Shown: in pieces, positions 9,083-63,284 of the stretch
Layout of the letters: every line of letters starts with the position of its first letter
Position numbering within the stretch: position 1 is the stretch's first letter
Assembly: GCA_951406725.2 (NCBI GenBank)
Contig: OX597823.1
Location: forward strand, 38,440,001 to 38,504,000
Reading direction: 5' to 3'
Source of the DNA: Octopus vulgaris
Taxonomy: Eukaryota
DNA length: 64,000 nt
The notes under the pieces: model-generated
What the model saw: only the letters and a program-made list of their open reading frames with translations
The model's database searches: none
What the model was told of the DNA's origin: nothing
Position numbers and translations under genes: made by a program

Positions 9083-12000
9083 TGATTGATTGATTGATTG
9101 ATTGATTCTAGTTTCAGCTTATGAGCTGTGGCCATGCTGGGGCACCGCCATTTGGTGTTGCTACTTGGTTTCACTTCATGGAGGCTTTCTAGCAACTGCT
9201 ATTTGGTGCATGAGAGAGTTCGATGCAGCTGCCCTCATCTGCCCCTCCTGCCGTGAAGTTGGTTCATCTGGGACACCTGACAGGAAGAGATCCAGCTCCA
9301 TTTTAAAGACATTTGTATCCACCCCATGCAGGTCTCTCAGGTTCTTCGGGAGGATATTGAAGAGCTGTGGGCCTCGGAAGCCCAGGCTATCACAGAATCT
9401 TGTCCTACATCTTGATGGCAGGTTTGGAGTCCTAGGCACCACGCAGTGGCGCCCAGTTCTGGCATTTGCGTAACTCTCGATGCCAAAGTTCAGGACACTT
9501 CCCTCCAGGATCTTCCAGATGTATATTATGGCATATCTTTCCCGCCTACGCTCCAGGGAATATAATTTTAATCTCTGAGTCTTTCCCAGTAGCTTACATT
9601 CTGCATAGAGGCTATCTTCTTTGTGTAGCTTCGTTGGATCGCCTCAAGTTCTGTGATCAACTTGACACTGGATGGTGACCATAGCTGAGAGCAATAGTCA
9701 AAGTGGCTTAGGACAAGTGTCTTCCAGAGGACCATCATGGTTTCTTGTTCTCTTGTTCTAAAGGTTCTAAGAATCCATCCAGCCAGCCGTCTACATTTCA
9801 TTGTCAGTTTAGCAACATGTACATGAAAGGTCGCGTCATCACTCATGTGAATACCAAGGTCACGCACTGATTGTGCCTCTGGGATTGCAATCCCTCCGGG
9901 TCCAGTGTATTCATTGGGTATTGCATTCAGTTTTGCATGCTGATAGTATAAAGCTTGAAACTTTCCAGCATTGAACTGCATGCTATTCTTTTCAGCCCAC
10001 TTGTATATTTCGTCCAGCTCACATTGCAGGTGTTTAGTGTCCTCAGGGTTCTGTATTGCCTGTGAGACTTTTGTATCATCTGCATAACTTGTGATCGTGG
10101 CTCTCTGCGTGGCTGAGGGCATGTCTGAGAGGGCCATTATGAACAGTAGTGGTCCCAGAACAGTGCCCTGCGGAACACCGCTCACTATTTGTGTGTTAAT
10201 GGAGGTGGCCCCATTGGCTACTACCACCTGACTTCTATCCTTCAGAAAGTCATGAAGCCATTCTCCCAGTTTTCCAACTATGTTGAGATCACGCAGTTTG
10301 TGACATATCATTCCATGATCGACTTTATCAAAGGCCTTTGCAAAGTCGAGATATATCACTTCCACATTTGAGTGGTTGAGCAGCCGTTTCAGCACCCAGT
10401 CATAGTGTTGTAGGAGCTGAGTTAAACAGCTTCTCCCTGGTCGGAAACCATGTTGGGTGTCGGGCAGCAGGTCATTCTCTTCAAGGAAGGTGATCAGCTT
10501 CCTTCTGACTATTCGTTCCATGACCTTGCTGATGTGTGAGGTCAGAGAGATAGGTCTATAGTTCTTGGCTTCCGCTCTGCTACCTCCTTTATGAATGGGG
10601 CATATTTTACCTTCCTTCAGTTTTCCTGGAAGTTTGCCAGCTGCAAGGAAGCTCTGAAAGAGGAACTGCAGTGGTCTTGCTAGGACTCTCTTACATGCTT
10701 TTAGGAGGATTGCCGGGAATCCATCGGGGCCAGAAGCTGAGTCTGTTTTCATTTCATCTATAGCCTTGGTTACATCGTCTTCCTTTATATCGATGTAATC
10801 TATCGTCGCCGCCTCTGATTTTATATCTGCAGTGGTAAAAAAGTCAGTTGGATTGGTGATTTGGAGATGCCCAAGGGGTGGAGTGAAAACACTCTTGAAT
10901 TGCTCATTCAGTATTTCACTTACCCTCATTGGTTTTCCTGTAAGTGTGCCATCCTTTTCAAGGAGTGGCCCTATTCTACAGTGCACTGTAGCTGTTTCTT
11001 TGGCATACCTGTAGAAAGCTCTGGGGTTAGATTTTATGTTTTCTATAGCCCAGGCTTCTTTGTCTGCTCTTTCTTTTTCATGGGAGAGTTGCAGACATTT
11101 TTCGATTTCCAACAGTTTTATTTTTAGGCGGGACTTTTCACTACTTTCAATCTGTTTGTTTAGGCGATTTGAAAATTTCGTACACCGTCTCATTAAAATT
11201 TTCCTCTCTCTGGGGATTTTGTTGTTGTGTACAGTGGCCTTTCTCTCTGGGACACATTTGTAGCATATGGCTTGCATTACAGACATGAATTGTTGAAGTT
11301 TCACATCGATGTCTGGCGAGGAGAGACATTCAGGCCAGTTTTGTTTGAGGATCTCTTTTCAATTTGTTTCCAGTTTGCCTTATGGTAGTTCAAGCTGGAA
11401 AGATTTTGAGGGTTTCTTGTAGGCTGCATGTCCGTGCTCTCTTTTGGCCCGTACATGGTCAGCTCTATCATGTTGTGATCCGAGAGTAGTGTCGGTGTCA
11501 CTTTCACATTATGGATGAGATCCATGTCATTTGTGAAGCAGAGATCCAGTGTGTTACCTGCCCTGGTTGGTTGGAGTATTACCTGCTCCATGTACAGGGT
11601 GTTGATGAGGTTCAGGAGGGACCTCGCCTGTCCTCGTTCACATCTTGTCATTCCTGGGAGAGAAAGGCCCTCGGGCCATCTGACATTGGGCAGATTGAAG
11701 TCTCCCATAAGAAGCACACCTATGTGTTGTTCTAATGTGGTTAGAATTTCTTCTATTTTTATAAGGCAGTCTTCGAACTTGCCCACATGGCTTGGGGCAT
11801 CTGGAGGGCGATATGTAGCACACACAACTACATCAAGTTGCCTAATATGTACAATTAGTGTGTCACACACCGAGTTTGAGTATGACAAGAGGACCTGGGG
11901 TGTGAGGTCCTCACGGATGTACATAGCAACACCTCCATGACTCCTTTCTTTCCTGTCGGTCCGTAGTACAGCATACTGTGGTATGTGTAACTCCGCATCT

Positions 12001-12191
12001 GCTATGTCCGGTTTCAGGTGCGTTTCTGTAAGTGCTATGCATAAGGCTTGATTGCATGCAACAAAGTCTCTCAGGAACGGGATCTTTGTCCTGTTACTGA
12101 GTGTTTGCAGTCCTCTGATGTTCAGTAGGAGTATCGAGGTGAGGTGTACGTTGTTGCCGGCGGTGTCCATGAGTTGCATAAGAATCAGCAA
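9083..12191 (-). mobile_element. CR1/L2-group LINE, 5'-truncated near the ORF2 start; ORF2 (APE endonuclease + RT) split by two 1-nt frameshifts; (AATC)n 3' tail
   Basis: ORF 11301-12191 has LLLNIRGL, ALTETHL, GDFN, LDL and SDH (APE). ORF 9568-11304 has NYRPISLTS, QHGFRPGRSC, YLDFAKAFDKV, GVPQGTVLGPLLF and YADD. ORF 9176-9442 continues the C-terminus. (GATT)n at 9083-9107 is the tail. Confidence 0.95.
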
Positions 12192-12972
12192 CCTTAAATG
12201 TTAAACTGACACAAGAAAATGCTCATGAGACTCAGTAACCAGACTACTAGTAGTGAATCCTGAGACTCAGTAACTATGTTAAACTGACTGACTACTAACA
12301 AATGAGTCCATAACTTGTTATATCTGTATGTTATTGAGTAACATCAGGCTCAAATTACTTCAACAATCATAAGGGAAAGTCATAACTCTACCTAGCCATG
12401 TCAGCATTAAAAAACAAATCAGTGTGTCTGTTTATGCACACAAATAATATTTGATATAATTTTATAGATTGAATTATAAGACAAGTCCTGCCTTAGGGTT
12501 AACTTATCATATGAACTATGTTTAAATGTCGAGAAGATTATAGAATATTGATATTTCATTATTTAATCCAACTTTTATCTATTAAGCCATCCTTAATTCT
12601 CTTTCTTAATCAGTTTTCATTGATTATTATTTTTGTTGTTGTTATTATTTGGATTGTTAGAATTATTAGAACATTTGACAAAATATCTTGCAATATTGCT
12701 TCCTGAGTTTACATCTCATTGAGACCAACTTCCATGATTGATAAAATTTTGTACCAGTCAAATACTAATCCATTAACTCAGCCAACTCCATTTCCACAAA
12801 ATTTCAGGCCTTGAATCTATGTTTGAAAAAATTGTTATTGTTGTTGGTAAGGTAGTAAGCTAGCAGAATTGTTAATGTGCTTCACAAAATGTTTAGTGGG
12901 ATTTCTTCCAGTTCTAGCAGAAGTACCAACCTTCAAGCAGTTTCTTGCTACTCATTATGTATTAAGGAGGTA

Positions 12973-21780: not shown

Positions 21781-22921
21781 TACATATATTTAACTTTTAG
21801 AGAACATTGTTTTTAGATCTATTACTTTTGTTGAAGCATTAATTTCATGAAAGAAGAATTATACCTGATAATTGTAATTGATAATGCTTCATTCTTTTCC
21901 TTTATTTTCTCTCACATATTTCTCTAAGTAATAATGAAAATAAGAAAACTGAGATGTTAGATACTGAACAAGGAATGTAGGTTAAATAGAAAGTGAGCCA
22001 GTGGAGCTGACAAGGGTGCCAAGTGTATAGATTCTATCTGAGACAAATGGGACAACTTTTAAAGATAGTAACTAAGGTGTTAATCATTAAGAGGGTGTGG
22101 CAGATGTTACATACATTCTTAGTTGACTGATTAGAAGGTGTATGAATGTGTATGACTGGTAAGACAACAGTGTTGTCAATTGTTGAAATTGTTAGAAGAT
22201 ATAAAATTTCAGTAACAGAAATTTAAGTAACGATAGTAATAGAAACAACCACAGTGAAATTAATAATAGATACACATTTGGGGCTTAAAATATGCATTAT
22301 TTCAGTCACAAAATATCATTATTGGATTCACATATTCTGTAGTTTTATTCAACACTCTACTGATTATACAATATGCTTTTAATAATTTCTAACATTTATT
22401 TAGTGGTCCAATAAGAAAGCCTCTGTTGTTGCTTGACATGCTAGAGGCGACAACAAAGTATCTTTCAAATTACACCCCTACAACTTTAAAAAGGAAGGAC
22501 ACATTACACAATGTGGTCTTGGATGCATTATATCTGGATAGAAGAAGGAATGCTCATGACTGGAACACTTTTGATTGTAAGCTTCCCTACCAGTTTGATA
22601 CCAATATACATCACTAATGACATATTTTATTGACCCTCTAGAATGATGGAAGGTAAATTTAGTCATAGTAGAATGTGATATCAAAATGTAACAGGTTGGA
22701 AGTCGCTATTACAAAACAATTTGTCCAGTACCATCAACATTACTACCATTAGTGATGTACAAAAGCAGAATTGCAGTTGGTGTGGGTTTTGACCAAGTTG
22801 TATGCTACATTGGTCACAACAAATTTAAGTAATCATGTGATGACCCATAATAAAACCTCTTACAAGAATATGTTTGCAATGAGAAAACATGATCATGTTT
22901 GAAATCAAATTATTTTGAAAA

Positions 22922-22964
<43 letters not shown>

Positions 22965-24464
22965 CATGGAAAGCGGACGTTAAACGATATATATATATAT
23001 ATATATTATTTACTAATCCTTGACCTATCATAACATTGAGAATGTGACAGCTGACAGTTGAAATGGTTGCACTAGCACTAGGTTGGTAGTTGTTTTCAGC
23101 TGAGTAAACTGAAAGGAAGTGCCTTGCTCAAGGACAAAATGTACCACCTGGTTCAAGAATTGAACCAATGATGTCATGATCATGAACCTAAGAAATGTAA
23201 TAAGAACTTTCTACAAGTATCATTTTGATTGGTCCATCTATTTTACTTTAATGAGGTGGAGAAAATATACTGCATGTCCAGTAACTTTGTAGCAATAATA
23301 ATTAAAATTCAGCTTAAAATCATTTAATCTGTTTTATATTGATGTTGTAGTTAATAAAATCACAAATTTCCAGTCTAAACTGCATCTTTTCAGTGTGAGG
23401 AAATTTAAGATTGGCAGAATCAAGATAGTTTTTGAAATAAGGAAGATATTGAATATAATACTGGTAAAATCTCTGCAAAAGGCATTGATTTTGATTTTGA
23501 TTTTTCCAGTTTCAGCTAATGAGCTGTGGCCATGCTGGGGCACCGCATATTTGTTTTTATTTTAGAAAAATTGAATTGACAAAATACTTTGATGTTGCTT
23601 TTGCTGGGAGAATGTGCCAAGAAAGGAATAGCAATCTGATTGGATTGATGAAATATTTAAATAATCCTCGTTTAATTTGGGATGAACTCGACTCATTTCT
23701 TACTTTGCAATCAGAAACTTGGTTGCCAAATATGGCAAAGAAATGGTTTGGAAGAATGTCAACCACTTCATAAGACTTCCCTTCTTATTCTGAGTTAGAA
23801 CTCATGATAACTAAATCACTCACTCCATCTCCATTTAATATTTACTTTTCTATGCTTGCATGGAGTAGATGGAATTCAGTGAGACAGGTATTTTTTTATA
23901 GCTCAAAGCCTTTCTTGTCACCAACCCTCAATTGTTTCTATGTAAGGTAGTATTTTCTCTTGGCTGCTTGTTTGATGGTGACAGTTGTGCAATGTTAACA
24001 CAAGGAAAGAGAGAGAGAGACACACACTCACACACACACACATGCACATACACAGATGAGGAGCATCTTTCAGTTTCAGTCTACCAAATCTGTTCATAAG
24101 GCTTTGGTCAGACTAGAAATATAGAAAACACTTACTTAAGGTACCATCAAAAGAAAAATCCCTGCCACAGAGATTAAATGTTACCATTAATAAAACTGTT
24201 GACAACAATGCTATGATTTAAAAATTAAATATTGTCAGAGAGTTAGACTGCAGAAACTCTACCTTGCCCACTGTCCTATTCCTCCAACTTACATCAGTGT
24301 GGAGAGAGAGAAAGAGTCAGATAACAACTTTTCTGTAGTAAAACTCTTTGTTACAGAATTATTATCAAGCTCAAGTGACAACACCATCAACATTGCTTCT
24401 GGAGACTATATTATCAATTTGATTGAAATATCTTTTAATAGTCAGGAAAATTTACATTTTCTTT

Positions 24465-24845
24465 CATTTTGGGATTTGGTTTGCAAGGTTCTTTATTTGA
24501 GTTTGTGCTTTGAAGCATATTTTGTTGTGTCTGGGGAGAGTCATTCTCTTTTAGTGCCTTATTATTTAACACACTCATTGGTAAAATTTCTTCTCATTTA
24601 CTTATTTTTCCTAAAATTTTCATTGTGTTTTGCAACCTCTGCAATAGTCATTGACTCTGTCCAGCATCCGAGCTGCATTCTTTTTTTTTGTTTGTGTGCA
24701 TGTGTGTGGGTTAGTGTGTGTGTGTGTGCATATGCTTGTATGTATGTATGTATGTATGTATGTATGCTTGTATGTATGTATGTATGTATGTATGTATGTA
24801 TGTGTATACGTTTGTAAGGTTGTGTATGCATGTATGTGTGTACAC
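24465..24845 (-). mobile_element. Terminal segment of the Penelope-like family seen at 31.8-33.7 kb
   Basis: Shares ctggggagagtcattctcttttagtgcc..ggtaaa..ttgcaacc and the (TATG)n tract with the arms of the 31.8-33.7 kb palindrome. Confidence 0.7.
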
Positions 24846-24939
24846 AACAATACATTTTCTTTAATTTTTGTAAATTTTAAAAAGTTTTCTGTATAAGTAT
24901 ACATATGTTTTAAATGGAATAAATGTTTTGAGGTTCATG

Positions 24940-25175
24940 AAAAACACCATTTGAGTGTGGCCATTGCCAGTACTGCCTGACTGGCCCTCATGCCAGTGAC
25001 ACATAAAGCACCCTCTACACACTCGGAGTGGTTGGCATTAGGAAGGGTATCCAGCTGTAGAAACTCTGCCAGATCAGCTTGGAGTCTCGTGTAGCCATCT
25101 GGCTCGCCAGTACTCAGTCGAACCATCCAACCCATGCCAGCCTGGAAAGCAGACGTTAAACGATGATGATGATGA
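24940..25175 (+). mobile_element. SINE-like repeat with (TGA)n tail
   Basis: Same family as 20822-21147. Confidence 0.8.
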
Positions 25176-25944
25176 GGATTGCTCCTTTCTAATGTTTGAA
25201 ACCCTGAATTACTAAATAAGTGATTTAAAAAGGGAAAATAAAAAATATGAGGTCTCTTGTGAAATTCCTGGAAATCTGCTTTTTTGTTTCTTTTTTTTTT
25301 TGTTTCATACACTTGATTTCTCAGGAATAAGTTCTGGGAAACTGAGAAGCCCTAGTACATAGTACAGGGTTATGGCTGCATCATCATAATCATCATCACA
25401 ACCTTGTACTAAAAGAAAAAATGGCTCCAATGAAGGAGAATTTTTTTTTAACTTTAGAATTTGTGAATTGTGGAAAGAAAATTTTTTAAAATTTACCTTT
25501 CTTTTGTATATGAACAGAAATTTTGACTCTTATAAAGAGCATCCATTTTTAATAGAAGTATTAATGCTACATAATATTAGTTTAACACAAATAAACATTT
25601 GTGTATTGAATTAAAAAATTTATTTTGTATATTGTTTATATTATTAATTGTAATTTTGAATATTTTTATTAAAATTTTAGTTTGCTTTTCTTATTGAAAG
25701 ATTAAGATGGGTTAAAAGCTAAATTTATGAAGAGCTATATTATGAAGTTGAATGTTTTATTTATTAATTTAAAGTTTTATGAGAGGAAGAAAGAAAGATA
25801 ATATAAGCTCTATATTAACTGTATACTATTAAATGTTATCTAATCATCAAATAGATGAGGCTGCATCTCTCTCTTTCTCTCTCATGCACATACATACACA
25901 TGTACACACATGAATGAATTTTGATGGGCAGATTGTTTCTTTTA

Positions 25945-26305
25945 TCTTTTACTTGATTTATTAATTGGACTACAGCCATGTGTGTGTCATATCTTAAAGG
26001 GTTTAGTTGAACAAATCAACCACAGTACTTGTTTTTTATTAAGTCAGGCACTTATTCTCTGTGTCTTTTTTGTTAAACTACTAAGTTACAGTGATGTAAA
26101 CAAACAAGTTGCCAAGTGTTGAGGGGACAAACACACACACATCATGAGTTTCCATATAGTTTCCATCTCCCAAATTTACACACAAAGCAAAGTATTGGTC
26201 AGCCCTGAGCTATAGCAGACACTTGCCCAAGATGTCATTTAGTGGGATTTAACCCAAAATCATGTGGTTGCAAAGTGAGCTTCTTAACCACACAGCCATG
26301 CTTGC
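25945..26305 (-). mobile_element. tRNA-derived SINE (head tggctgtgtggttaagaag; related copies at 29718-29890 and 43705-43850 on +)
   Basis: Minus strand has A box TGGCTGTGTGGTTAAG, B-box-like GGGTTAAATCCC, an internal (TG)n and an AT-rich tail. Confidence 0.7.
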
Positions 26306-28380
26306 ACTTATGTTTACATGTTCTTTTTTTTCTTTTTTAAAGTTAGTTTCATCGATTTATGGCTATATAAGTAAATATTAGCTCTATTTCAGTTTCATCT
26401 CAATGATTTTGTATGTCAAAAAAGATCTCATACCAGATCTTTATATAGGTTTCTCACAGCATTAAACCAGGACCTAAATAAGCTATTGAGTATCATTTGA
26501 TATTAAAGGAGAGACTTGGGCACCATATTTATCTTTCATTATTTACCAAAGCAATGTATATAGGTGTTTACTTATATTCTAGTGCAATGAAAGGCTACAA
26601 TTTGACTATTGAATTATCAAACATAAATTGTTTCATACTTGTTATTACTGATAATAATAAATAAAGGAGTTAAGTTTATGGAAATTGATTGATTGTCTTT
26701 TTATCCCTTCCTAAAAGATAGGCAATCAATAATCATGGCTTGTATTCTTTTGCAATTTATGGTACTTTCATGTTATTGATTCACTCCTTAATTAAATCAG
26801 TCTCAGTATGGTAGAGCCATGTAGTTGAAGCTGGTAAACAATTTCCTTGAGAAACAAATAAGATATTATTTTAAAGGAAAATAATAACAAAAACTAATGA
26901 AGATAAAATGTTGGATTAAAATCACCAGTTCAGTACACTGAGTATTTACTTTTTATCAATGTATTTTATTTTCTTCTACATAAAAATTATAGCTTTGTGG
27001 TTAAGATGTTAATTTTGCTATCATATGATGTGATTGGGCTTACTTGGACAAGTGTGTTTTTTTTTATTGTCCTGCATGTGCCATATCCTTGCAAGTGCTG
27101 AAGCCCATGGGAGGTATATATTGTGTGTGTGTATGTGTGTGTGTGTGTGTCTGAGTGAGTGTGTGTGTGCGTGTGTGTGTGCATGCATGCACATGCACAC
27201 ATTAACAGTTCATGGTACCACCAATAAAAGGATTGAGCAAAAACATCTTGTGATATTACCCCTTACCTTCATGTTGTGTTCCTTTACACCTATTGCACCC
27301 TTGTCTTTCATTTCTTGGGGTTGATACCAGAAAAGTGGTAGATATAAATGCTAAAAGCCTTAAAAGTGCTACAACTCCTGTAGTGAAATGATAAAATACT
27401 ACTATTGTAAAAAGAGACAATAGTCATGTGCAAAAGATACTTTTAGACACTTAAAATCTGTTGCAGATTGATTCTTTGTGTATCTAGACAAGGCTCTTCA
27501 TTCTATATAACACAGTTGATATAACTTTAAAAAATAGGTAGTAAATCATCTAGGAGTGTTACATAGTCTAACATTTTATCCAGGAGACTTTCCTACTTTG
27601 TACTTGAATTTGGTGTAAAAAATTGGAGCCTCTTTTATACTTGATAGACATCTTACTATTCACTTTTAATGTAGCTACTTCATAGTATTAAAACAAACAT
27701 AAATTCCAAAAATTTATATAAAATTTTCTAAATTTGCATTAATCATCCCACCTATGTTGGAGAACACAGATGTTACAAATGAAAATGTGTCAATAATCTT
27801 TTTCTAAGCTGCATCACCAACTTTTACTTGGGTTGGATACTAATTGGCTAACTTTTATATATTAACTCTTATTTTCTTATATATTACTGTTATTTATTTT
27901 ATCAACCACAAAAAAAAAAAAAGGAAAAGCAGAATTGACCTTGGCAGGATTTGAACTTAGAATCCTGGCAGGATTCAAACTCAGAAAGTATTTGGTTTGG
28001 TATTCTACAGTTTCTGCTCCATCTCACCACTATTTTTTTTGAAGATGAGAATAAACACTGCTTGTTAGCAGTGTTTATTCTCATGAATTTTGGCTTTAGT
28101 AGCCCATGCTCTTAACCACTATGCCATATGCCCATTCTTCGAAGAAAGGTGTGGTTATAATGACAATTATGATGATGACAGTGATGATAGACAATAAAAC
28201 AATGATACCTACAATAAGAATGCTTTAAATTGTTAATTATTATAATGAAAAACATGAGCATAAATTCTTTAATATTCTTAAAATTTCTTTCCCTTGCTAA
28301 TAAAAGCTGTTTTCTGTTTATTCTGTCATTAATAATTGTTACTGTATCCTCTGCTTATGTAATCTAACAACTTCAGTTCT

Positions 28381-28534
28381 TATTTACATTATTTACAATT
28401 GATGGATATTTGTCCTCAGCTTGTTTGTTGTTAACACGTTTCGACTGATATACCCTCCAGCTTTCATCAGGTTTGTTGGGGAAATTTCGAACCTGGGTTC
28501 TCATTCCTAAGGTTATTTTTTGATGTTGTTGTTA

Positions 28535-28576
<42 letters not shown>

Positions 28577-28660
28577 TCACTGCCTGAACGGGCATATGGC
28601 ATAGTAGTTAAGAGCGTGGGCTACTAACCCCAAGATTCAGAGTTCGATTCCAGGCAGTGA

Positions 28661-28705
<45 letters not shown>

Positions 28706-28782
28706 CAACATCGAAAAATACCTTAGAACTTGGAATCTTGGGGTTAGTAGCCCATGCTCTTAACCACTATGCCATATACCCG
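28381..28782 (-). mobile_element. tRNA-headed short element with (AAT)n spacer, hammerhead-like core and a nested inverted self-copy (28588-28726, +)
   Basis: The + copy shows A box TGGCATAGTAGTTAAG, CT-ACT-AA loop and B box GAGTTCGATTCC. The minus host continues to CTGATGA..GAAAC (28470-28438) and a gtaaataatgtaaataa tail. Confidence 0.7.
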
Positions 28783-31474
28783 TTCTTCCAAGAAAGGTGT
28801 GGTTATAATGACAATTATGATGATGACAGTGATGATAGGCAATAAAACACATTGTTTCTTGAAATCACTGCCTAAACAATCCTTCAAGGTTTTACTATTT
28901 CCAGTAGCTTCTGGAAGTCTCTATAAGGTTGCTTGATCTGAGAGCATTGTTTCAAAAATGGAATTGTATATTATGTAATCATAGTTAAGTATCTCTTGAG
29001 AAAATGAGAGGAAATGGTCATAGTGTGAGTACTGTTGATCATAGGTTTACTGACCTAGGACTTACAAAAAAAAAAACAACTTACATTCTCAACATTGCCT
29101 AAACTTGTATAAGGTGGCTTGGGATTTATTAGAATAAAGTATTTCAGTCCTCAACAGTTGACTATTTCCAGAGCCCAGAGTATTTCACTGTGAAACTTGT
29201 TTCTCTCTTTGGGGAAACTGCACTTCCTTTGATCACTGGCATCCTGATCGATAAACCAGATCAATAAACTGTTTTATATTGAAACTCTTCATCCTCTCTT
29301 TCATTGTGTTTCTGTTCTATTTCTGCCTCTTCTGCTGTTGCTGTAATGGACTTTGACCTTCACAACATTGCAACCTCTACATAATCCACAAATAAGTTAC
29401 CTGTTGTATACAACACTCTTCTCATCTATACCATACAAATTTTCCTTTGGTTCAAAACTGTTTTAATGGATCTCTTTCCTTCTTCACAGTTTGTACAGTA
29501 GACAAATCACCAAATCTTTCATCAAAACAATAACTGTCAAAATCTTACCTATATCTTCTAATTTGGCAACCCCACCAACTGATTATGGTAATGTTCATCA
29601 TTTGATGGGTTTGTTAAAAAAGATCCAAGACAGTATATATTAATCTTAATTCTGTTGTTTAGTTTTGTTTATATATTTATATATACTCTTACAATACTGT
29701 AAGTTATTTAAAATAAAATGGCTGTGTGGTTAAGAAGTTTGATTCTCAACCACATGATTTCAGGTTCAGTCCTGCATGATACCCTGTATAAATCTCTTCT
29801 GTTATAGGTCTGGGCTAACGAAAGTCTCCTAAGTAGATTTGGTCTTTGCTAACCAAAATCTTCTAAGTAGAAACAGAAAAGAAACTTGTTATCTGCCCGT
29901 CCGTCCGTCTGTCTGTCTGTCCATCCATCTTTCTACTGATTGATGTATCTGTGTGTGTGTGTGTGTGTGTGTGCACATGTGTGTGTCTGTATTTGTTTTT
30001 ATTTGCACTCACTTATTTGTAAGATATGACATTTGAATAGTATTGCTGGCACTTCTGTCAATAACTTATTGGCTTGTTTCATACCTTAAAAACCATGTGG
30101 AATACGACCCCTTACTTGAAAAATAGATAAGGGTTGGCTTCAGAAAGGTCATCCAGCTGTAAAAAATGTTTTTATAGGCTATTTTTCTAACCCATGCTAG
30201 CAATAAACATAAGCAATAAAACCAAGTGAACTCATATGCCTATATAAGAAATATCATTGGGAGATAAAAGAAAATAGAGATATATGCATGAAGATAACTA
30301 AAAGACAAAAAGACTCTTTCAAAAATCTCGTGTCACAATTTCAAAAATGTTTAATCAATTAATTTTGTTATCTAATAATTAAGATGATAAACACAATCTA
30401 TTGCTTATGGCAAATTTGATGCTATATTAGTACACTCATGATTGCTTTGTTGAATAATGGCACTTTTGTTTGATGACTGGTAAACTACTAATAAAATGAT
30501 CATTTTTTTTATGCTGTTGAAAATGATGTAAACATATGCTTGTTATTTATTCAAGTATACATGAATTTGTGTAATATTACATATCAGTGCAATATATTAA
30601 AACAGTAAAATTAAAATTAGAAAACTCTGGGTGGTACATGGTGAAAAGTTTTGGAACAGTAGTTTTGTTGTAGGCTGGATTATCATTATCATCATCATCA
30701 CGTCCATATTCCATGTTAGCAAGGATTAGATAGATTGACAAGATTTGATTGGTCGGAGGGCTGCATCATATTCCACTGTCTGCTTTGGCATGGTTTCTAT
30801 GGCTGGATACTCTTTCTAACATCAATCACTTTGCAATGCATACTGGGTGCTTTTTTTATGGCATCAATACCAGTGAGGTTGCCATACAGCGTGCAAGAAA
30901 ATTCCCTCTGAGTGAATGAGTCTACAGTAGAGAGGGAAGCAGTTTTATGCTTGGAGAAAAGGGGTTTATTAATGAGAGAAAGAACTGTAACAGGACAGGT
31001 TTCTTGCTGTAGAGAAGCAACATGGTTACTCACATTATGGAAGAAAGGGTGGAGCGACAGGGCTAGAACTGAAGAAAAATGAAATAGTGGTGATGAAGTG
31101 TCAGGATGGAGCTTCAAAGTACAAAATGAGAAGGAGTGGGTGCAGAAGAATTGAGAATATGTAGGGAAGTGGTTGTGTATATGAGAGAGAGAGAGAGAGA
31201 GAAATGGGCAAGGTAGGGATGAGTAGGTGACAACTGCAAAAACTGCGTAAGATTGAGGAGTTGATGTAGTGAATGGTGGATAAGGGGTAGGAAGAAAAGA
31301 AAAATCATCTTTATGATTTTGATGCTCATAACCACAATGTCCACAGACAAGCAATATAAGTTACACTGTAAGCCATGTTACAAATATGTCATATATATTG
31401 CACTACTTGCCCATAGTAGAGTGGATAAGTGTCAAATTCCTGCATGGAAAGCAGGAAGGTTCGAAAGTCTAGGC

Positions 31475-31707
31475 CTAGCCCTAGTATATATTTCTTTACT
31501 ACCCACAAACACAGAGGGGACAAACGAGGACAGACAAAGGGAATAAGTCGATTACATAGACTCCAGTGTGTAACTGGTACTTAATTTATCGACCCCGAAA
31601 GGATGAAAGGTAAAGTCGACCTCAGCGGAATTTGAACTTGGAACGTAACGACAGATGAAATATGGCTACGCATTTTGCCTGGCATGCTAACGTTTCTGCC
31701 AGCTCGC
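31475..31707 (-). mobile_element. Young tRNA-derived SINE with probable TSD
   Basis: Same family as 8718-8935, CpG-intact. cctagccctagtatat occurs on both sides (~31474-31489 and ~31706-31721). Confidence 0.85.
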
Positions 31708-31841
31708 CTAGCCCTAGTATATGTGCCCACACATACGCGCATATGCATACACACATGTAGTACATTTACAAGGAAAAGGTTGGCAGTTAAGTTGAAGTTC
31801 TACTTAGATGGAAACAAAACCATTTAAAACATTATTTTATG

Positions 31842-33665
31842 ACTGGGGAGAGTCATTCTCTTTTAGTACCTTATTATTTAACACACTCACTGGTAAAGTT
31901 TCCACTCATTTATTTATTTTTCCTAAAATTTTCATTTCATCTTGCAACCTTTTCAATAATCATTGCCTCTGTCCGTTATCTGAGCTACATTCTTTTTGTT
32001 TGTTTGTGCATGTGTGTGAGTCAGTGTATGTGCACATACACATGTATGTATGTATTATGTATGCATGCATTTAAGTGTGTGTATGTATGTGTGTGTGTGT
32101 GCATATATATGTATGTATGTGTGTACATTTGTATGTATGTATTCTGCATATTCATGTTTGTGTTTGTGTGTTTTTATGTGTATGTGTGTGTTTTCATGTG
32201 TGTGTACCTCTGTCTCCTTGTGTGTGCATGTCTGTGTGTGTATAGATTTTTGTGACTATGTACTGTCTGTATGTATGGATGTGTATCTCCATATGTGTGG
32301 ATGTGTGTCTCCGTATGTGCCCTTGTGTCAAGTGAAGTGAGTGTGTATATGGTCATGTGTTTCAGTCTTCATTTGCATTTGTGTGTGTAAATGTGCTTGT
32401 CTGTTCATATTACCTATGTACCTATGTCTATCTGTTTACATTCATATCTATTTGTATACATACATGTGCATATACATACATGTACACACACACACATATC
32501 TACATAACAGCCCACTAACTATTCTATCTGTATATAGATATAAACTGCAGGTATGGGGGGTATGATCATGTACTACGTATATTTCCTATTTAGTACTGGG
32601 GAGGTTTCATTTATGAGGACGTACACATGTGCATATACAAAAAAGTAAACACACACACATCTACATGTGGATGTCAGGTTGACCCAGGTTGCCCCCATGT
32701 TGGCCCTTGGTATGTTGATAGAGAATGGAGAACTGTTTTTTGTCATCTTATTTTCTCAAATGTTCATGTAGTCTTTCTGCAATGCTCCTAGACTAAATGA
32801 ACATTTAAGACAATATGACAACAAAAAATAGTCCTCCATACTCTATCAACATACCAAGGGCCAACATGGAGGCAACCTGGGTCAACTTGACATCCGCATT
32901 TTATCCAAGCACCCAAAGGACAAAAACCTCAGACAAATACAGGATCACATCCTCATAAATGAAACATACCCTGTACTACATAGAAAATATACATAGTAGG
33001 TAATCATACCTCCATACCCACAGTTTATATTTATATACAGGTAGAATAGTTAGTGGGCTGTTATGTAGATATGAGTGTGTTTACTTTTTTGTATATGCAC
33101 ATGTGTAGGCAAATGAATATGAATGTAATCAGATAGATTTTCAGATGGATAGGTACATAGGTTAATATGAACAGACAAGCACACATACACACACACTTCA
33201 CTTCACACAAGGACACATATGGAGACACACATCTATACATATGGAGACACACATCCATACATACAGACACAGTACATTGTCACATACAAACACATACAAA
33301 CACACACACACACAAACACACAAACACAATTGCATGAATATACAGAATACATACATACAAACACACACACACACATACATATTTACATATGCACACACAC
33401 ATACATGCATACACACACTTGCGTACATACATACATACATACATGCGCATGCACACACACTGACCCACACACACGCGCACAAACAAACAAAAAGTACACA
33501 GCTCAGATAACAGACAGAGTCAATGACTATTGAAAAGGTTGCAAGATGCAATGAAAATTTGAGGAAAAATAAATAATTGAGAGGAAACTTTACCAGTGAG
33601 GCACTAAAAGAGAATGACTCTCCCCAGACAACAAAATATGCTTCAACACACGAACTCAATCCAAA
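31842..33665. mobile_element. Head-to-head inverted pair of Penelope-like element 3' ends (palindrome, ~15-nt spacer at 32775-32789)
   Basis: Arms are reverse-complementary block by block. 32790-32996 (+) translates RLNEHLRQYDNKK*SSILYQHTKGQHGGNLGQLDIRILSKHPKDKNLRQIQDHILINETYPVLHRKYT*, resembling the C-terminal half of a Penelope GIY-YIG endonuclease. The left arm encodes the mirror ERLHEHLRK*..SILYQH. Confidence 0.75.
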
Positions 33666-34205
33666 AACGAAATTATTTTACGAGTTTTTTTTTAAACCAC
33701 AAGGTGAACAATACCCCCAAATTGTTCATCTCCCCAATTTAGGGAAGGTAATATGCCAAGGATACACTAAATCTTTGTGTTAATACTTTCTTTTCAGAGT
33801 ATGAAGAAGCAAAGCTGGAAGTGAATTTACTAAAAATTTTGAAAAACAATCGTAACTTTAAATGACAAAAGACCAATAAATGCTACAGTATATCAAATCA
33901 TTAATTCTGTTTGGTTAGAATATTTTCTTCACATTTCAGATTTAAGTAGTAGTTTTTTTATAATCAATTTAGTGTTAATTGACTTTTGATGAAAGGAGAT
34001 ATATTTATTTCAGAGGTGCACTGGCTAGACAAGTGATTTGATCTGAGACAGTGTGTTGAAACTAAAACAATTACACGATGAAAGACACATATTAACTATT
34101 CAAAAACACATAAAGACTTAATTTCACTTAAACATTTATTATTTATATATTTAATATATTGTATATTTAGTAAGTGATTAAAAATTATCTGTTTATATTT
34201 ATCAG

Positions 34206-34442
34206 GATGACAGTGATGAAAGTAACTCCTTGTCTGGATCCCATATTGAAGTTAATACAGTCTCAGGAAACCTTATCCAACATCCTAAACCAAGTCCAAA
34301 AAACCTTAAAAAAATCAAAGCAATTCAAGAATGGGAGATAATTAATGGATTGAAAGAGGGAGAGAAATGTGAAGAAAAACCAGAAAAATATCAGGGATAT
34401 TTACTTAAAAAACGAAAATGGCCCCTAAAAGGTTGGCATAAG
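34206..34442 (+). CDS. OSBPL6: Exon of oxysterol-binding protein-related protein (OSBPL3/6/7 group), start of PH domain
   Basis: Acceptor tttatcag, donor AAG|gtaggt, 237 nt, phase 0/0. Translates DDSDESNSLSGS..QEWEIINGLKEGEKCEEKPEKYQGYLLKKRKWPLKGWHK. WEI..GL and LKKRKWPLKGWHK are diagnostic of ORP3/6/7. The symbol is the nearest vertebrate name; one-to-one orthology is not established. Confidence 0.93.
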
Positions 34443-47149: not shown

Positions 47150-47565
47150 AAATAATAAGACCAAGAAATCCTTTAATGATTTGTTACAATTGTTTCTGTA
47201 TCAACTCTGCTTGCAATGCCAGAACACACAAAAATTCAAAGTGAAAATTTTCATAATGTTTGCAGTTTTAGACATTAGAGTGGCACTTCATCAGACTTGC
47301 ATCAAAGGTGCACCCTCACATTGGCATAGCTTCTGTTGCCTAAGTGGCCAAGTTAGCAGTGGAGAAGGAAACTCTGAAACACAATGTGTGGGTGCACCTT
47401 CGATGCAAGTCTGATGAAGTGCAACTTTAATGTCTAAAACTGCAAACATTATATAAATTTTCACTTCGAGTTCTTGCATAAACTGGTGTTCTAAGCAGAG
47501 CTGGTACAGAAACATTTGTAACAAATCATTAAAGATGTGTTTAAAGATTTCTTTGTCTTATTATT
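47150..47565. repeat. Inverted repeat, ~175-185-bp arms with ~57-bp spacer
   Basis: 47150-47323 is the reverse complement of 47381-47565. The ORF track shows near-identical peptides on opposite strands. Confidence 0.9.
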
Positions 47566-49304: not shown

Positions 49305-50510
49305 CATAGGATAGACCATCCAAACCTGGTGATTTGTCCCTCAAGTATTCTGCTATCACGTCCTGCACTTCTGCTGTCATGATGGCACCTTCACAGCACT
49401 CTGCCTCTCTTGTCAAGAGTCATGGCAGGCTGCACAGGTAGGCACTGAAGTCCACCCTGTGTTCTCGCTTGCCACTCATCCTGAACAGCCGGGCAAAATG
49501 CTTTTGAAAGGCCTCACACATTTTACTTGGCTCAAGTAATTTGTGCCCCTGTTCTTCTACCAGAGACCGAACGGTGGCTTTGTTTCCCTGTTGCACCTCT
49601 GCCACCCGGGCCTCTTGTGTGGCTCCAATTCCTTCATTCCTTAGAGCATGCATCCTAGTCCTGACAACACACCCTTTGTGTTTGGTGTTGAAGTGTTGGT
49701 TGAGGGTCAACCTTGCCATCAAAACGTCGGATGCGATGCCACTTCTAATCACCTCTTCTAGCTTCTTAACTAGGTCACCCTCTTCTCTGTTTCTATCTAT
49801 AGCTAGTGCTTCACTATACCTAATCACTTCTACTTTTATTGCTCTCTTGAGGGCAAACCACCATTTGTTGTTGATGATGGCTCCCATCAAAGCCCTCTTT
49901 ACTAGCGTGCTAATCTGGTCTCTGAAAACCTGTCTTGATGGGAAAGACGCGTTTAGTTTCCAGTAACCAGGACCCTGCCTATGTGTCTTATCTAAGTCTA
50001 GCGTACACATCACAAGTTTGTGATCTGTGTAGCTGACTATGTGGAATTGTGGACACTCTACTCTATTTCTATCTACTGTCCTACACAGTATCCTATCTAG
50101 ATATGATCTTGTCGACCCAATGTTGCTCCATGTCCACATTGGCGCATTCGGGTGGTCGAGTCGGTACCTGTCAGACAGTTGAAAGTATCTGAGCAGGTCT
50201 CTGAAGCATTTGCATCCCTGTCTATTCCTATCTCTGCCCACATAGTCTAGATGCGTGTCCAAGGTAGCATTCCAATCCCCCACCAGGAGTAAAGGACGAG
50301 ATGTTCCTAGGAATACTTCTAGACGTCGAAAGAAATCCAGCTGACCTGTTAAAGGCAGTATGTAGACTGATATGAGTCAAAAAGTGCACCCATTGCTGTC
50401 GTCGACATCCAAGACAACCAGTTTACCCTCCGGGTCTACGAATATTGTCTTTATTTTGAGATCCAGACCCTTCCGAAAAAGTACCACCATGCCACTACCG
50501 CCCATTCTCA
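49305..50510 (-). mobile_element. L1/Tx1-clade LINE ORF2 fragment (endonuclease and linker)
   Basis: ORF 49420-50283 has GDWNATLD, SYLDRI, YTDHKLV and GPGYWKLN, typical of L1/Tx1 APE domains. Truncated before the RT. Confidence 0.85.
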
Positions 50511-51399
50511 GAATATAAAGAGCCAGAACAAATACAGCAAGGAATTTATTCTGATAATAAAGTATAATAATAATAAAAATTAGTCCTCTGTTGAAATGTT
50601 TAGGATGCAGTTTCAGAAATAGATGGATTCTTGATATCTAAATGAACACATGTGATGTTTGTGTAAGGCTTTTTATAAAACAATTGAAAACCATAGAATG
50701 AGCATTAGCAATGAAGAGGAAAAAAAATGATCCTAAATTGATTGATAAATAATTCAATTTCCTTTGAAGCAAATATCACTAACCATAACAATAGGGAAAT
50801 GTTTCTAGAACAGAAATTAAAATGTTTGTTAAGAAATAAGTAGTCATGTTTTTCATAGGAAATATTTCCACTTTGTTTGTAGACAATTGTCATGGTTATC
50901 TATTTGTTCATTTTATTTTCATTGATTTGATGGGTTACCAGTTGTGAAGACTAACATTTTAAGATATCATTCTTACCTCATATAGATGTCCATCATCATC
51001 ATCCTCATTTTAGTGTCCATTTTTCTTTCCTTGCATGGGTATGATAAATTCATTGGTTGGATGCCCTTTCTGTAACCAACCCTCACCTGTTTCCAAGTAA
51101 TATAATGTTTTCCCATGGCCAGACATGTTTTACTAAACCAAGCAGTTTCTATGCTTGTTTACAACCATTACTGATATCAAGACAAAGGTGCGTGCACAGA
51201 CATACTCTGTCTCTCTCTCTCTCTCTCTCTCTCATGCGCATGTAATGAGCTTCTTTCAGTTCCATACTATCAAATCTTCTCACAAGTGTGTCAGTGTAGT
51301 AGAAGACACCTGCCCAACATACAACACAGTGGGACTAAACCTGAAAATATATGCTCAGGAAGCATACCTGTACCTATTTATGTAAAAAGCATAATTTCT

Positions 51400-53810
51400 T
51401 TATGTACAAAGGAGTTAACATGGTTGTAAGGTTAAGGTGCTTGCTGGACCAACACATAGAGTTTATTGTATCTTCAAATGTGCTCCTCTGTATGTTTTGG
51501 CGAGAGTACAACACCCTCTGACGAGAATAGATGAGACCGCTACATATACTTCAGAAAAGAGTATCTGTTTAAAAACTGAACATGCTATAGTTGTCAGAAA
51601 CTTGATCACAAGAGCTCACACTGCAAGACAAGATTATGAGGATTGAATGCCATAAGTTCTAAGGTGTTTCAGCAGAAAGTGAATGCAACACAAAAACAAA
51701 AAATTTGTACATGTAGAAATAAATGGTGTAAATATTAAACTACAGTTGGATATGAATAGTGATATTTCAGTCATAAATGTGGATACATGGAGAAAAATCG
51801 GGAAACTGAGGTTATGTAAACAGCAAAAATTGTGTGTGGTGTGATGGACAATAAATTACATTTGATGGGTGAAATGTGAACAGACATCACAGTTTGAGGG
51901 GAAACATGTGAAGCAAAAGTATTCATTGTGGAGAATACAATGAATCTGTTTGGTACAGATTGGTTGGAGTTATTTGACTTATGCCACCTCCCTATAAGTC
52001 TCTACTGCAAAAACATAAATGGTTGTCCCATTAAAAATAATTTGAGGAATTGTAAAAAAAAATTGAAAAAGATGTTTCCTTCTTGGAGGACTTAGATCTA
52101 TGTAAAAAGACTGAAGCCTGCTTTCAAGTAAGTGAAATCACTGTGCCTGTATTTAAATCGAACAGAAAAATACCGTTCATGACAATTGAAATCATAAATG
52201 AAGAGTTGGACAAACTGGAAAAGTGTGAAATCATTAAAGAAGTGGATTATGCTAAGTGGGCGGTGCCCACAATGTGCATTAAAAAGAAAAGTAAAAGATT
52301 AGGCAGTGTACCAGTTTCTCTACAGGATTAAATGACTGCTTAAAGACATGCCACTGTCCACTACCAGCTCCAGAGGACATTTTCACAAAAATTAAATGGT
52401 GGAAAAATTTTCTCCAAATTGGATCTGTTTGACACTTATTTACAGATTAAAGTAAATGACAAATGCTCAAAGTATCTGACAATAAATACACATTGAGGAT
52501 TGTACAGATATACCTAGTTACCATTTGGATTAATGGTTGCACTGGCAATATTTCAGCAAATCATGTACGCCGTGTTACCTGATTGTGAATTTGCAATCCC
52601 TTATTTGGTCGATATATTAATAGTAATTTGTGTGAACCCCATGTGGAGCATATAAAAGCTGTGTTCAAGAAAATTGAAGAGTATGGGTTCATATTGAGTG
52701 AAGAAGACAAATTCTTTTTGCCTCAAATTAGGTACTTATGGCAAATAATTGATAAAGATGGTAGATGGCCTGACCCGTCAAGGGCAGACACAATAAAGAA
52801 TATACCTACTTCGACAAATATACCAACATTACAAGTGTTTCTTGGGTTGGCAAACAACTACCAAAACTACATTCCTAACATGCACAAATTAAGAGCTCCA
52901 TTGAATAACTTATTAAAAAAGGAAGTAAAGTGGAATTGGTTGATTAAATGTCAAAATGCATTTGAAGAAATTAAAAAAAAAATTCTAATCATAGATTTGT
53001 TGTGTCTAACACATTTTGATCCTGAAATGGACATTGTTGTAGTGTCTGATGCTTCGGAGTAAGGAATAGGAGCAGTTTTGCTACACAAGTATAAAGATGG
53101 AAGTACGAAACCAGTTATTCATGTTTCATGCTCGCTGATAGTGGCAGCGAAAATATACAGTCAGATAGAAAAAGAAGCCCTATCAATTATCTTTGCTGTA
53201 AAAAAATTTCACAAGTTTCTACATGGTAGAAGTTTTCTGTTACAAACAGCTCATCAATCATTGCTATCAATTTATGGGTCAAAGAAAGTGTTACCTACCC
53301 ATACAGCAAACTGACTACAATGTTGGGGTATAATATTACTAATTTACAATTTCAAAATGTTGCATATTCCATCGGAAAAAATTGGTCATGCGGACTTTCT
53401 ATCGAGACTAATTCCCAAAAATATGGAACCGCTAGAAGATACTGTGATAGCTGCACTGCAGGCAGGAAATAAAATAAAAAGTATTATGACTAATGTTATC
53501 TAAGAACTGCCAGTGACTGCACAGGATATAAGAATGAAATCTGTCGGCAATGAGTATATTACAAAAATAAAGGAAGCTTTAAAAAACAAGCAGAATAAAA
53601 ATACAAATGCAAGTAGTTTCTCAATACGTGATGATATTCTGATGTATGCACAAAGAGTTGTAGTACCAACTACATTACAAAATTGTGTATTGCAGCAATT
53701 CCACAGTGGACACCCTGGAATGTTGAGGATGAAAGCTCAGATGAGGAGCTACGTCTACTGACTGACTATGGACTGGAATATTGAAAATTTGGTGAGAACA
53801 ATATGCAAAT
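51400..53810 (+). mobile_element. Decayed Ty3/Gypsy pol (protease, RT, RNase H, integrase zinc finger); no LTRs seen
   Basis: LQLDMNSDISVIN (protease), FSKLDL, LPFGL..AIFQQIM, YLVDIL, DASE*GIGAVL, YSQIEKEALSIIFAVKKFH and HSGHPGMLRMK occur in Gypsy domain order. Confidence 0.9.
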
Positions 53811-59405: not shown

Positions 59406-60049
59406 ATACTCTAATATGATAAAAATGTAACAATGTCTCTGTGTTTTTAATGGTTAATGACTCTGCAATAGTTCTATTGTTTCTATATTTAATTTTTCAA
59501 CTTGTTTAATATCATCACTTGCTCTTTGGGTGCTGTTGATGGAGTCCCCTCTGATGAAAGCATTTGAGACAGTCTCCAGTTTGCGATTAATTTCCTCCCA
59601 CTAATTTTGTGTTTTCTGAGAAGGGTCAGGAGTGCTGTCCTCCCCTTTTAAAAATAATTTTTTATCTATTTTTTGTAAATTTTAAATATGGTAAAATTCT
59701 TATCTAGTTTATTGAATTTGTTTTTTTTTAAATTTATATTTTAAGAACTCATTATTTTCCTTTCCATAAGATGTAACAGAATAAGAAGCACAATAAAATT
59801 ATATTTTTCATTTCTTTCTTTATTTTCATTTTTTTTTCTGAATAAAATTCTGTTGCAAATCATTTATTTTTTTTTAATTGGTGAAATGTTCCTGTTTGTA
59901 GAACATTAACAAATGGGTTTTTCTAAGCTTTTAAGTTTACACATACTTTTGTCATTATTATTATATGCTATTATTATATTTTCAAAGTTATTATAAACAA
60001 TATCTTTAATTCATTCTTTTTAACATGAAAATTTCTTCTCTATTTTCAG

Positions 60050-60103
60050 AGATATTTCTTTTTAGATAAAGGAATTTTAGTTTATGCTAAATCTCCAAAT
60101 GAA
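60050..60103 (+). CDS. OSBPL6: OSBPL3/6/7-like exon, PH domain (54 nt, absent from the ORF track)
   Basis: Acceptor tattttcag, donor GAA|gtaagt, phase 0/0. RYFFLDKGILVYAKSPNE directly continues ..KGWHK. Confidence 0.92.
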
Positions 60104-60446
60104 GTAAGTACCTTCTCTTATTTCATCACTTACATTATTAGATATAGTAAAAACATTTACATGTTCTAATGTAACTTTTATTAAAAATATCTGCAGTTTC
60201 TCATTTAATTGTTGTAATTGTTTAGTGTTATGATTTTACATAAAAACACTCATTTGAAAATTCTAATAATTATTATTATATTGTATATTGAAACTGGTTA
60301 GAACATACTAAACCATAACATTTAGAATTTTGATTTGATTTTGATTTTTCCAGTTTCAGCTAATGAGCTGTGGCCATGCTGGGGCACTGCCATTTATTCC
60401 ATTTATTCCATTTTATTAGCAAACTAATTATTAAACTAGCCCTAAA

Positions 60447-62440: not shown

Positions 62441-63170
62441 ACCAGTTATTGAAGTCCATTATGCTCTTGTAACATTGTCCTCTCTTGCTATTTATCTCTC
62501 ACCCTCTCTTACAATAACCCATCTTCATAGCCATCTTTCCACCTTTCTCTATCCAGTCTCCTCCTAGCATGCAACTTCTATCACTATCTTTCTTCCATTA
62601 CTCCCACCCCTAATACCACCTCATTCCCAATATTCTGCTGCCTTCTCATTCTCACACTTATACTGTCTCTTCCATTCACCTTCTTCCTGTTGCTCTGTCT
62701 CTCCCATCTTAGTCTTCTATTCACCCTCTTGGTCATGTTGCTTTGAATGAACAGAATAATAAGAACTATTTAGTCTTACACAGGACAAAGCAATTTCACT
62801 TATGTTAATTCCGCAATAAAATGCATTCAATATACTCTATAAAGTGCTTGGTAAATGAATGGAGACAACATAAAGTTGAGGACTTTTTAATCTTGCTGAG
62901 GACATGACATCTTTTAGTGCTGCTGTCACAAGAAACTACACTCTCTGCCCTCTGTATAGTAGTTGGTGTTAGGAAGGACATTCAGATATAGCAGCCCTGC
63001 CAAAATGGAATTTACAAGAAAGGTGACCCATTTAGGAGAGCAATAACTCTAAATATAATTTGACTTGGATCATGATTACCTGTCCATCCCATGTCAACTA
63101 GAAAATGGACAAGGGGTGGTAGCATTTTAACTATCATTGTTGTTATTTTTGTTTTGTACTCCACTTTCAG

Positions 63171-63284
63171 ATTCAAAAAGGTAAATATCATGGCGTTATC
63201 GACATTGGGTTATCAGTCCTTTGTTTTAAGAGATGCCAACGCAGGATAGATATAGATGCTGAAGAGCTGGTGCATCATGTGAAA
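63171..63284 (+). CDS. OSBPL6: OSBPL3/6/7-like exon, PH domain (114 nt, absent from the ORF track)
   Basis: Acceptor ccactttcag, donor AAA|gtaagt, phase 0/0. IQKGKYHGVIDIGLSVLCFKRCQRRIDIDAEELVHHVK matches the ORP3/6/7 PH consensus IxKGKxHGxIDxGLSV..RIDxD. Confidence 0.95.

Follow-up and report, generated by a model that had tools for sequence, protein, structure and literature searches.

A tRNA-headed repeat with a Penelope-type minimal hammerhead in Octopus vulgaris, likely copied by a Penelope-like protein

The stretch at 28380-28787 of a 64-kb window of Octopus vulgaris DNA (the window being the whole stretch analysed, 64,000 nucleotides, from whose first letter all coordinates are counted) is a copy, rearranged and decayed, of an octopus repeat of high copy number whose tRNA-like head is joined via an (AAT)n linker to a hammerhead part. 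Jointly with this assignment, we consider the repeat likely to be a Pol III-transcribed, non-autonomous element that is copied by a Penelope-like RT/GIY-YIG protein. The more specific claim, that these repeats form a Penelope-dependent SINE family in which a Pol III promoter is fused to a hammerhead pseudo-LTR, with thousands of copies or more and heavily A-to-I-edited head-to-head inverted pairs, is put forward with greater reserve, though we still lean towards it.

Layout and setting of a decayed copy

Read along the minus strand, the insertion opens with a tRNA-like head at 28727-28781, delimited by sequence and alignment, with an A box at 28774-28764. The original prediction had described a minus-strand head with both A and B boxes; the A box is in place, but the head breaks off within the B box at 28727. 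The continuous unit of head, (AAT)n and core that had been proposed is in fact interrupted by a 141-bp inverted duplicate at 28586-28726 (plus strand; self-BLAST and alignment), which had been missed and which comprises head, B box and (AAT)n linker. The minus-strand order is broken here: the head stops at 28727, the inverted block follows, and the element resumes at 28585 in the linker. The only intact A plus B box pattern of the window, at 28597-28650 (+), lies within this block, and none was found in 100 shuffles. The block is most likely a later local template switch.

The linker proper (28514-28585, minus strand) consists of a short post-tRNA stretch, (AAT)n at about 28573-28531 and an AAC-rich stretch, and was delimited by sequence and by the loose ends of reads arriving from the head and the hammerhead sides. 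It is followed on the same strand by a spacer at 28476-28513, conserved in the family as judged from sequence and high family depth, in which a second B-box-like motif can be seen by eye at 28493-28485 (-). The next segment, 28433-28475 (-), was assigned as a type I minimal hammerhead, decayed here, using family majority letters, a 3-nt insertion, hand pairing and a chance control. Its pieces, all on the minus strand, are the 5' strand of helix I (28475-28471), CUGAUGA (28470-28464), an extra A (28463), helix II (28462-28457 with 28448-28443), GAAA (28442-28439) and a palindromic ACGU from 28439. The 3' body past the hammerhead (28380-28432, -) ends in two 9-nt tandem repeats at 28397-28380, where contig ends place the main 3' end of the family; these tail repeats and the (AAT)n run are present as predicted. 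The word AAGAAC, the longest common to both junctions, occurs on the minus strand at 28376-28381 and 28782-28787 and possibly represents the 3' and 5' copies of a 6-bp target duplication, although 28379-28374 may instead be the closing 6 nt of the family's optional tail. The sense strand of this copy has no run of four T.

A local duplicate of the 5' flank and the first half of the head (a copy of about 28850-28733; BLAST 94% over the 98 nt compared, and alignment) lies at 28084-28201 (-), and the partial second head at 28137-28084 belongs to this duplication. The depth of mapped family reads and contigs on the duplicate head drops past 28133, which corresponds to 28781 of the main head. Directly after this truncated head there is a near-perfect hairpin at 28046-28083 without family-read coverage; an Rfam match to Thr_leader (E 0.00075, 31.9 of 55 bits) fell on the hairpin and was rejected.

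An exon at 34203-34442 (+) encodes 80 amino acids with 100% identity to OSBPL6 (oxysterol-binding protein-related protein 6) of Octopus bimaculoides and O. sinensis, and more OSBPL6 matches lie at 60041-60124 and 63168-63287. Residues 1-73 of OSBPL6 have no match anywhere in the 64-kb window, which makes it likely that the element sits in an upstream OSBPL6 intron, antisense to the gene. A single-depth contig of the set X8 spans 28204-28430 with differences of 9 letters and 3 gaps; X8 carries a different organism label, so this insertion is present under both labels and is old.

The window also holds other repeats. A nearly intact LINE occupies 9170-12200 (-), with an APE endonuclease at 11304-12200 and a 596-aa RT frame at 9571-11358 (RVT_1, E 8.7e-31), and the sole RT domain among the 13 ORFs scanned is that of this APE-type LINE (9571-12200). 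A second LINE remnant with an endonuclease domain (Exo_endo_phos, E 8.4e-5) is found at 49423-50637 (-), and decayed LTR-retrotransposon pol fragments with weak RT_RNaseH_2 and Integrase_H2C2 matches at 52056-53761 (+). Fold-back pairs lie at 32665-32899 (arms of 110 nt, 89%, 15 nt apart) and 47171-47534 (153 nt, 86%, 58 nt apart). A further short repeat, abundant and dispersed (D16, D19), occurs at 8365, 20910, 30795, 38384, 38616, 41446 and 60560 and includes a 224-nt tandem pair of 97% identity.

The hammerhead in this copy and in the family

CUGAUGA, stem II and GAAA are present on the minus strand in the order announced by the original prediction, at 28470-28464, 28461-28457/28448-28444 and 28442-28439. 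The five pairs of stem II, two of them G-U, were also recovered, but the closing pair 10.1-11.1 of helix II (28462/28443) is an A-C mismatch. Helices I and III had been called unconvincing in this copy, and rightly so: two pairs of helix I are mismatched, and the predicted cut site near 28436/28435 lacks 3 nt. This copy fails both the loose and the strict hammerhead descriptor and does not fold as a hammerhead (z = 0.76, with 154 of 200 shuffles folding equally well). Among 100 shuffled windows, 9 contained a core combined with a stem of five pairs or more, and the window itself has such matches at 40076 (+) and 40490 (-), in an inverted pair of an unrelated repeat that may represent remnants of a Tc1-type transposase. 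Rfam gave no match over the whole window at the gathering threshold, and at E <= 10 the 11 matches in 28000-29000 all stayed under the gathering score and included neither a hammerhead nor a tRNA. The motif of this copy alone is no better than chance, and it exceeds chance only at the level of the family.

The family was assessed in sequencing runs carrying several organism labels. Parts of the stretch are contained in 20 of the 24 runs listed, and four contain at least half of its words. Four runs were mapped to 28040-28528 at 80% likeness, namely two raw RNA runs of one study (X23 and X24) and two contig sets (X1 and X8), the small-share runs X15-X20 being left out. The two RNA runs yielded 7,260 reads from 12.9 million records and 5,678 from 12.0 million, a share (about 0.05% of reads) that may be read-through, and the contig sets yielded 18,585 and 13,151 contigs. 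At 28380, 387 contigs of X1 and 335 of X8 stop matching and run into unrelated sequence (median 255 nt), which implies at least hundreds of loci. The depth ratio to the single-copy flank was about 1.2e5, or about 4e3 when every overlapping word was counted separately, suggesting between about 4,000 and 120,000 copies, to be read as a rough range from depth ratios and not as a copy number. Exact-pattern scans of metagenome, genome and viral collections found no copies of the element. Pieced together from overlapping blocks, the element measures about 270-300 nt and is short, non-coding, dispersed and of high copy.

The majority letter of the family differs from this copy at 28462 (2045 of 2174 and 1621 of 1741 RNA reads, with G in 93-94%), 28444 (2190 of 2266 and 1741 of 1839), 28473 (2034 of 2167 and 1622 of 1700) and 28475 (2062 of 2167 and 1617 of 1699). 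These four changes stand at 93-97% of RNA reads, the contig sets agree, and all four majority substitutions listed between 28430 and 28476 (among 40 of 84 rows) restore a pair. Family reads also carry 3 extra nt at 28435-28437 (489 gapped and 1580 clipped reads in X23). A representative protein search gave nine matches, seven of which were kept as spurious ORFs of other family copies, and five of these seven carry an extra codon in agreement with the 3-nt insertion; P0039 and P0042 were dropped as unrelated repetitive proteins.

With these changes, one majority sequence paired by hand gives a helix I of five pairs (GACAC with GUGUU), a CUGAUGA core, one extra A after A9, a helix II of six pairs closed by G10.1-C11.1 with an 8-nt loop, GAAA, a palindromic ACGU without a loop (helix III) and a GUU triplet. 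Extra nucleotide 9/10.1, G10.1-C11.1 and a palindrome, along with a long helix II and a helix I of 4-5 bp, are given by Cervera and de la Pena (PMC4209133) as distinguishing Penelope minimal hammerheads, and the octopus motif shares with these pseudo-LTR ribozymes the extra nucleotide after A9, the G10.1-C11.1 pair, the long helix II, the 5-bp helix I and the loopless palindromic helix III. Judged by its letters, the family majority has all the parts of a type I minimal hammerhead as known from Penelope-like elements. The strict full descriptor, against which the majority sequence was checked by hand, had 0 matches in 2e8 random bases of window composition. Decay has reached many copies, with changes of the CpG type at 28438 in 43% of covering RNA reads and at 28442 and 28443 in 17-21%.

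The mate strands of the RNA runs were equal and showed no end pile-ups, the runs being fragmented and apparently unstranded. Places with A>G or T>C within 28040-28528 numbered 36 and 39 in the RNA runs versus 10 and 13 in the contig sets; for C>T plus G>A there was little difference (20 and 18 versus 12 and 14). The A>G/T>C excess in RNA suggests A-to-I editing of the repeat, a comparison in which contigs drop rare variants and individuals differ.

Insertion marks, joined parts and a possible route of mobilisation

Penelope-like insertions are described as adjoined on the 5' side by an inverted 5'-truncated copy and as bearing a 30-40-bp tail on just one of their ends (Craig et al., PMC8557442). 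In the octopus family, 232 of 1015 and 173 of 753 RNA reads covering the position (23% in both runs) carry a head-to-head joint at 28133/28135. This count comes from only two RNA runs of a single study, and cDNA folding back on itself or a small number of expressed loci could account for part of it. Support from contigs is sparser: the head is joined to inverted truncated copies at 28133/28472 (two contigs) and 28130/28422 (one contig), and the consensus of 59 X1 loose ends at 28133 opens with an inverted head (agreement 0.49). Two 3' ends were observed, at 28380 or about 26 nt beyond, the latter slightly under the published 30-40 nt; the tail of about 26 nt is the consensus of 1374 and 1217 RNA loose ends at 28380 (agreement 0.57-0.61), and one of the seven spurious ORFs continues through it while six do not. 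An optional tail has been attributed to two internal reverse-transcription start sites downstream of the hammerhead (Frangieh et al., PMC11167929). As far as joints and loose ends can tell, the family bears two Penelope insertion marks, inverted 5' partners and an optional 3' tail, and with a hammerhead near the 3' end it resembles endonuclease-bearing Penelope-like elements (PMC8557442; PMC11167929).

Penelope-like DNA is reported to make up 6.83% of the O. vulgaris genome, with 31 recently active families (PMC13282606). Penelope mobilisation, as originally predicted, is supported by these insertion marks of the family and not by nearby remnants of a Penelope element. RT/GIY-YIG remnants had been placed about 4 kb away; Pfam searches in six frames of 22001-34002 gave no family at E <= 0.1, hence no Penelope domain near the locus, and 24203-24679 had no meaningful Atlas match (best score 0.76). 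Three copies of another repeat, two of them inverted to the third, lie at 24200-24700, 31870-32055 and 33430-33720, their class without a Pfam or Atlas match, and are probably what had been taken for Penelope remnants. Protein searches with two frames of the 3' part matched no Penelope protein (a weak test), and the supplement of Craig et al. contained none of three motifs taken from the 3' part (likewise a weak test). A partner ORF starting inside the hammerhead, as in the anole element, was considered and received no support from the protein searches in two frames.

The short 9-nt tandem end at 28397-28380 and the possible 6-bp target duplication also fit a LINE-type insertion, and we consider it unlikely, though the best surviving of the alternatives, that the family is an ordinary LINE-mobilised tRNA-SINE whose body took up a Penelope end piece at some point, with the hammerhead riding along as a passenger. 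RTE, CR1 and R4 LINEs have been recently active in O. vulgaris (PMC13282606), and SINEs are known to swap tails (PMC4824008). However, the hammerhead occupies the region in which the tail of a LINE should lie, only about 55 nt away from the 3' end, the inverted 5' partners and the optional tail are features of Penelope-like insertions (PMC8557442), and the 3' part has no match to any LINE within the window, a very small sample.

We give a little less credence to a retrozyme of the Sm-alpha kind, in which tandem arrays would be transcribed by Pol III, dimeric hammerheads would release circularising monomers, the dispersed copies would be offspring of these, and cleavage would be central. Schistosome elements work in this way (PMC6765202), animal retrozymes are argued to be Penelope derivatives (10.64898/2026.07.22.740005), and the majority sequence does contain a complete dimer-type hammerhead; moreover, a go-back joint 28506->28380 in one X8 contig could be a tandem unit or a partial head-to-tail tandem. 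The copies, however, begin at the tRNA head and end at least 55 nt past the predicted cut site instead of at it, and hundreds of contigs enter unique flanks, as against a single tandem-type joint among the 15 of 61 joints listed. Hammerheads of this minimal type are reported to cut poorly even as dimers or trimers (PMC4209133). No hammerhead tandem units were found at this locus, arrays elsewhere being beyond the reach of short contigs, and a joint of unit-length circular RNA was absent among those listed for X23 and X24, libraries ill suited to this purpose.

The tRNA head and the hammerhead had been predicted to form one element, and this holds at the family level in the majority sequence and in the joints. 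Direct joints 28513->28096 were found in 61 and 53 RNA reads and in one X8 contig, and the linker is common to the 1104 and 723 loose ends of RNA reads that lie behind 28513 (agreement 0.75 and 0.74; 0.71-0.75 overall). From the other side, head loose ends run on into the B box, the post-tRNA stretch and (AAT)n (agreement 0.75-0.87), and the two blocks of the window overlap in the linker in the same order. Depth over the head is about one quarter (RNA) to one seventh (contigs) of that over the 3' part. Copies truncated at the 5' end, the shortness of the head target or a surplus of pieces without a head would each fit this difference, and a head may have been absent from many 3' pieces from the outset. 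It is improbable, given junctions fixed on both sides (the linker behind 28513 and the post-tRNA stretch after the head), the reads spanning both parts and the shared order of the overlapping blocks, that abundant Penelope end pieces often land in the (AAT)n of an unrelated tRNA-SINE and leave head-bearing copies as chance or minor chimeras, in spite of the 4-7 times deeper cover of the 3' part, the ATT preference of the anole Penelope-like endonuclease (PMC11167929) and the fact that most of the link evidence runs through a simple repeat. By these junctions, the family as a whole links the head to the hammerhead part through the (AAT)n linker. The tRNA origin of the head is suggested only by its A and B boxes, neither ARAGORN nor Rfam having matched a tRNA.

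For the Penelope-dependent reading, we propose the following route. A Penelope-like end piece (pseudo-LTR) would have inserted into the (AAT)n tail of a tRNA-SINE, giving a fused element that then served as a master copy. Pol III would start at the head and, with no run of four T, read through to give a monomer RNA. A Penelope protein would then bind the region around and after the hammerhead and nick AT-rich DNA, and the choice between two start sites of reverse transcription would decide whether a copy carries the tail. The inverted, often 5'-truncated partner could come from a second round at that insertion site. The anole Penelope-like protein prefers and nicks ATT, and hammerhead cleavage in that system is protein-assisted (PMC11167929).

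Since the hammerhead lacks a helix III of its own, it would cut only as a dimer or with the help of a protein, and it is probably silent in the monomer RNA. A cut would separate the promoter from the priming end, so a silent hammerhead would suit the need of the element. Single minimal hammerheads did not cleave in published assays and dimers did so weakly (PMC4209133), hammerhead mutants did not impair insertion by the anole Penelope-like protein in vitro, and RNA-seq is reported to show no ends at the cut site of the anole element (PMC11167929). Cleavage is probably not part of monomer mobilisation, as the uncut single hammerheads and the unimpaired mutants suggest. That the motif is nevertheless intact in the master copy, though a cut would sever the promoter, suggests a protein-binding structure or a dimer-only switch.

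Relation to known elements and significance

Compared with Penelope-like elements, the octopus family is distinguished by having no ORF and by the tRNA-like A/B-box head and (AAT)n linker in front. Its closest parallels in composition include Sm-alpha and Sj-alpha of Schistosoma, short, high-copy, non-coding retroelements that likewise unite a tRNA-derived Pol III promoter with a type I hammerhead (PMC6765202, PMC2770079, PMC4918200), and the designation 'undescribed system' in the original prediction was too strong in view of these published accounts (PMC6765202, PMC2770079). The schistosome elements differ, as described there, in forming tandem units whose cutting into monomers puts the promoter at the 3' end of each piece, and the canonical hammerheads of S. 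mansoni differ from its Penelope minimal hammerheads (PMC4209133). In contrast to Sm-alpha, the octopus copies are dispersed, start at the head, end after the hammerhead, and carry the minimal motif and Penelope insertion marks. According to the published descriptions, the pairing of a tRNA promoter with a hammerhead is already known, and what appears to be new is its combination with the Penelope minimal motif and insertion marks in dispersed SINE-like copies.

Non-LTR retrozymes are likewise short and non-coding, have a type I hammerhead and are thought to use Penelope machinery (PMC7229834; 10.64898/2026.07.22.740005). They differ in being defined by tandem units and circular RNA, and the accounts cited describe no tRNA head outside the schistosomes; in the text searched of 10.64898/2026.07.22.740005, 'tRNA' and 'octopus' have 0 occurrences. 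Chlamys MRC1 is a further short non-autonomous element thought to use Penelope machinery, and the passages cited describe no tRNA head for it (PMC8557442). Cassandra, Helenus and Ajax offer a parallel of another kind, a non-autonomous element that has captured a Pol III-type small-RNA sequence and has a partner other than a LINE; they differ in that their partners are LTR retrotransposons, in having LTRs, PBS and PPT, and in that the excerpt cited reports no hammerhead (PMC10886601).

With tRNA-derived SINEs, including octopus OR1 and OR2 (PMC4824008, PMC4758252), the family shares a head, a body, a tandem-repeat end and a very high copy number. SINEs are held to borrow the 3' tail of a LINE (PMC4824008), and the octopus family is set apart from them here by description, not by sequence. 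Octopus SINEs are named in PMC3531059, PMC4758252, PMC4824008 and PMC8967140, and the octopus and mollusc repeat literature, in the portions searched, does not report a ribozyme in an octopus SINE. Among the matches listed, by titles and the starts of abstracts, there was no octopus-SINE hammerhead and no Penelope-mobilised tRNA-SINE, the octopus genome paper, Ohshima and Okada 1994, Repbase and Dfam standing outside this scope. OK and 'Twin' are reportedly further octopus SINE families of Ohshima and Okada 1994, alongside OR1 and OR2. The family described here is probably already in repeat libraries under some name.

Octopus is an animal with heavy RNA editing, and inverted pairs of the element would form double-stranded RNA. 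If the Penelope-dependent reading is true, the family would provide a short natural cargo RNA for Penelope proteins and a short cis-acting RNA end for Penelope-type insertion, and its thousands of copies would allow a comparative test of what Penelope hammerheads are for. In O. vulgaris, SINEs are reported to make up 11.6% of the genome, with 893 of 900 recently active SINE families unclassified, and a Penelope-dependent SINE would reclassify part of this share (PMC13282606). The use of Penelope by a high-copy tRNA-SINE would widen the rule that SINEs depend on LINEs, and Penelope would then stand beside LINEs and LTR elements as a third partner class for Pol III-headed parasites.
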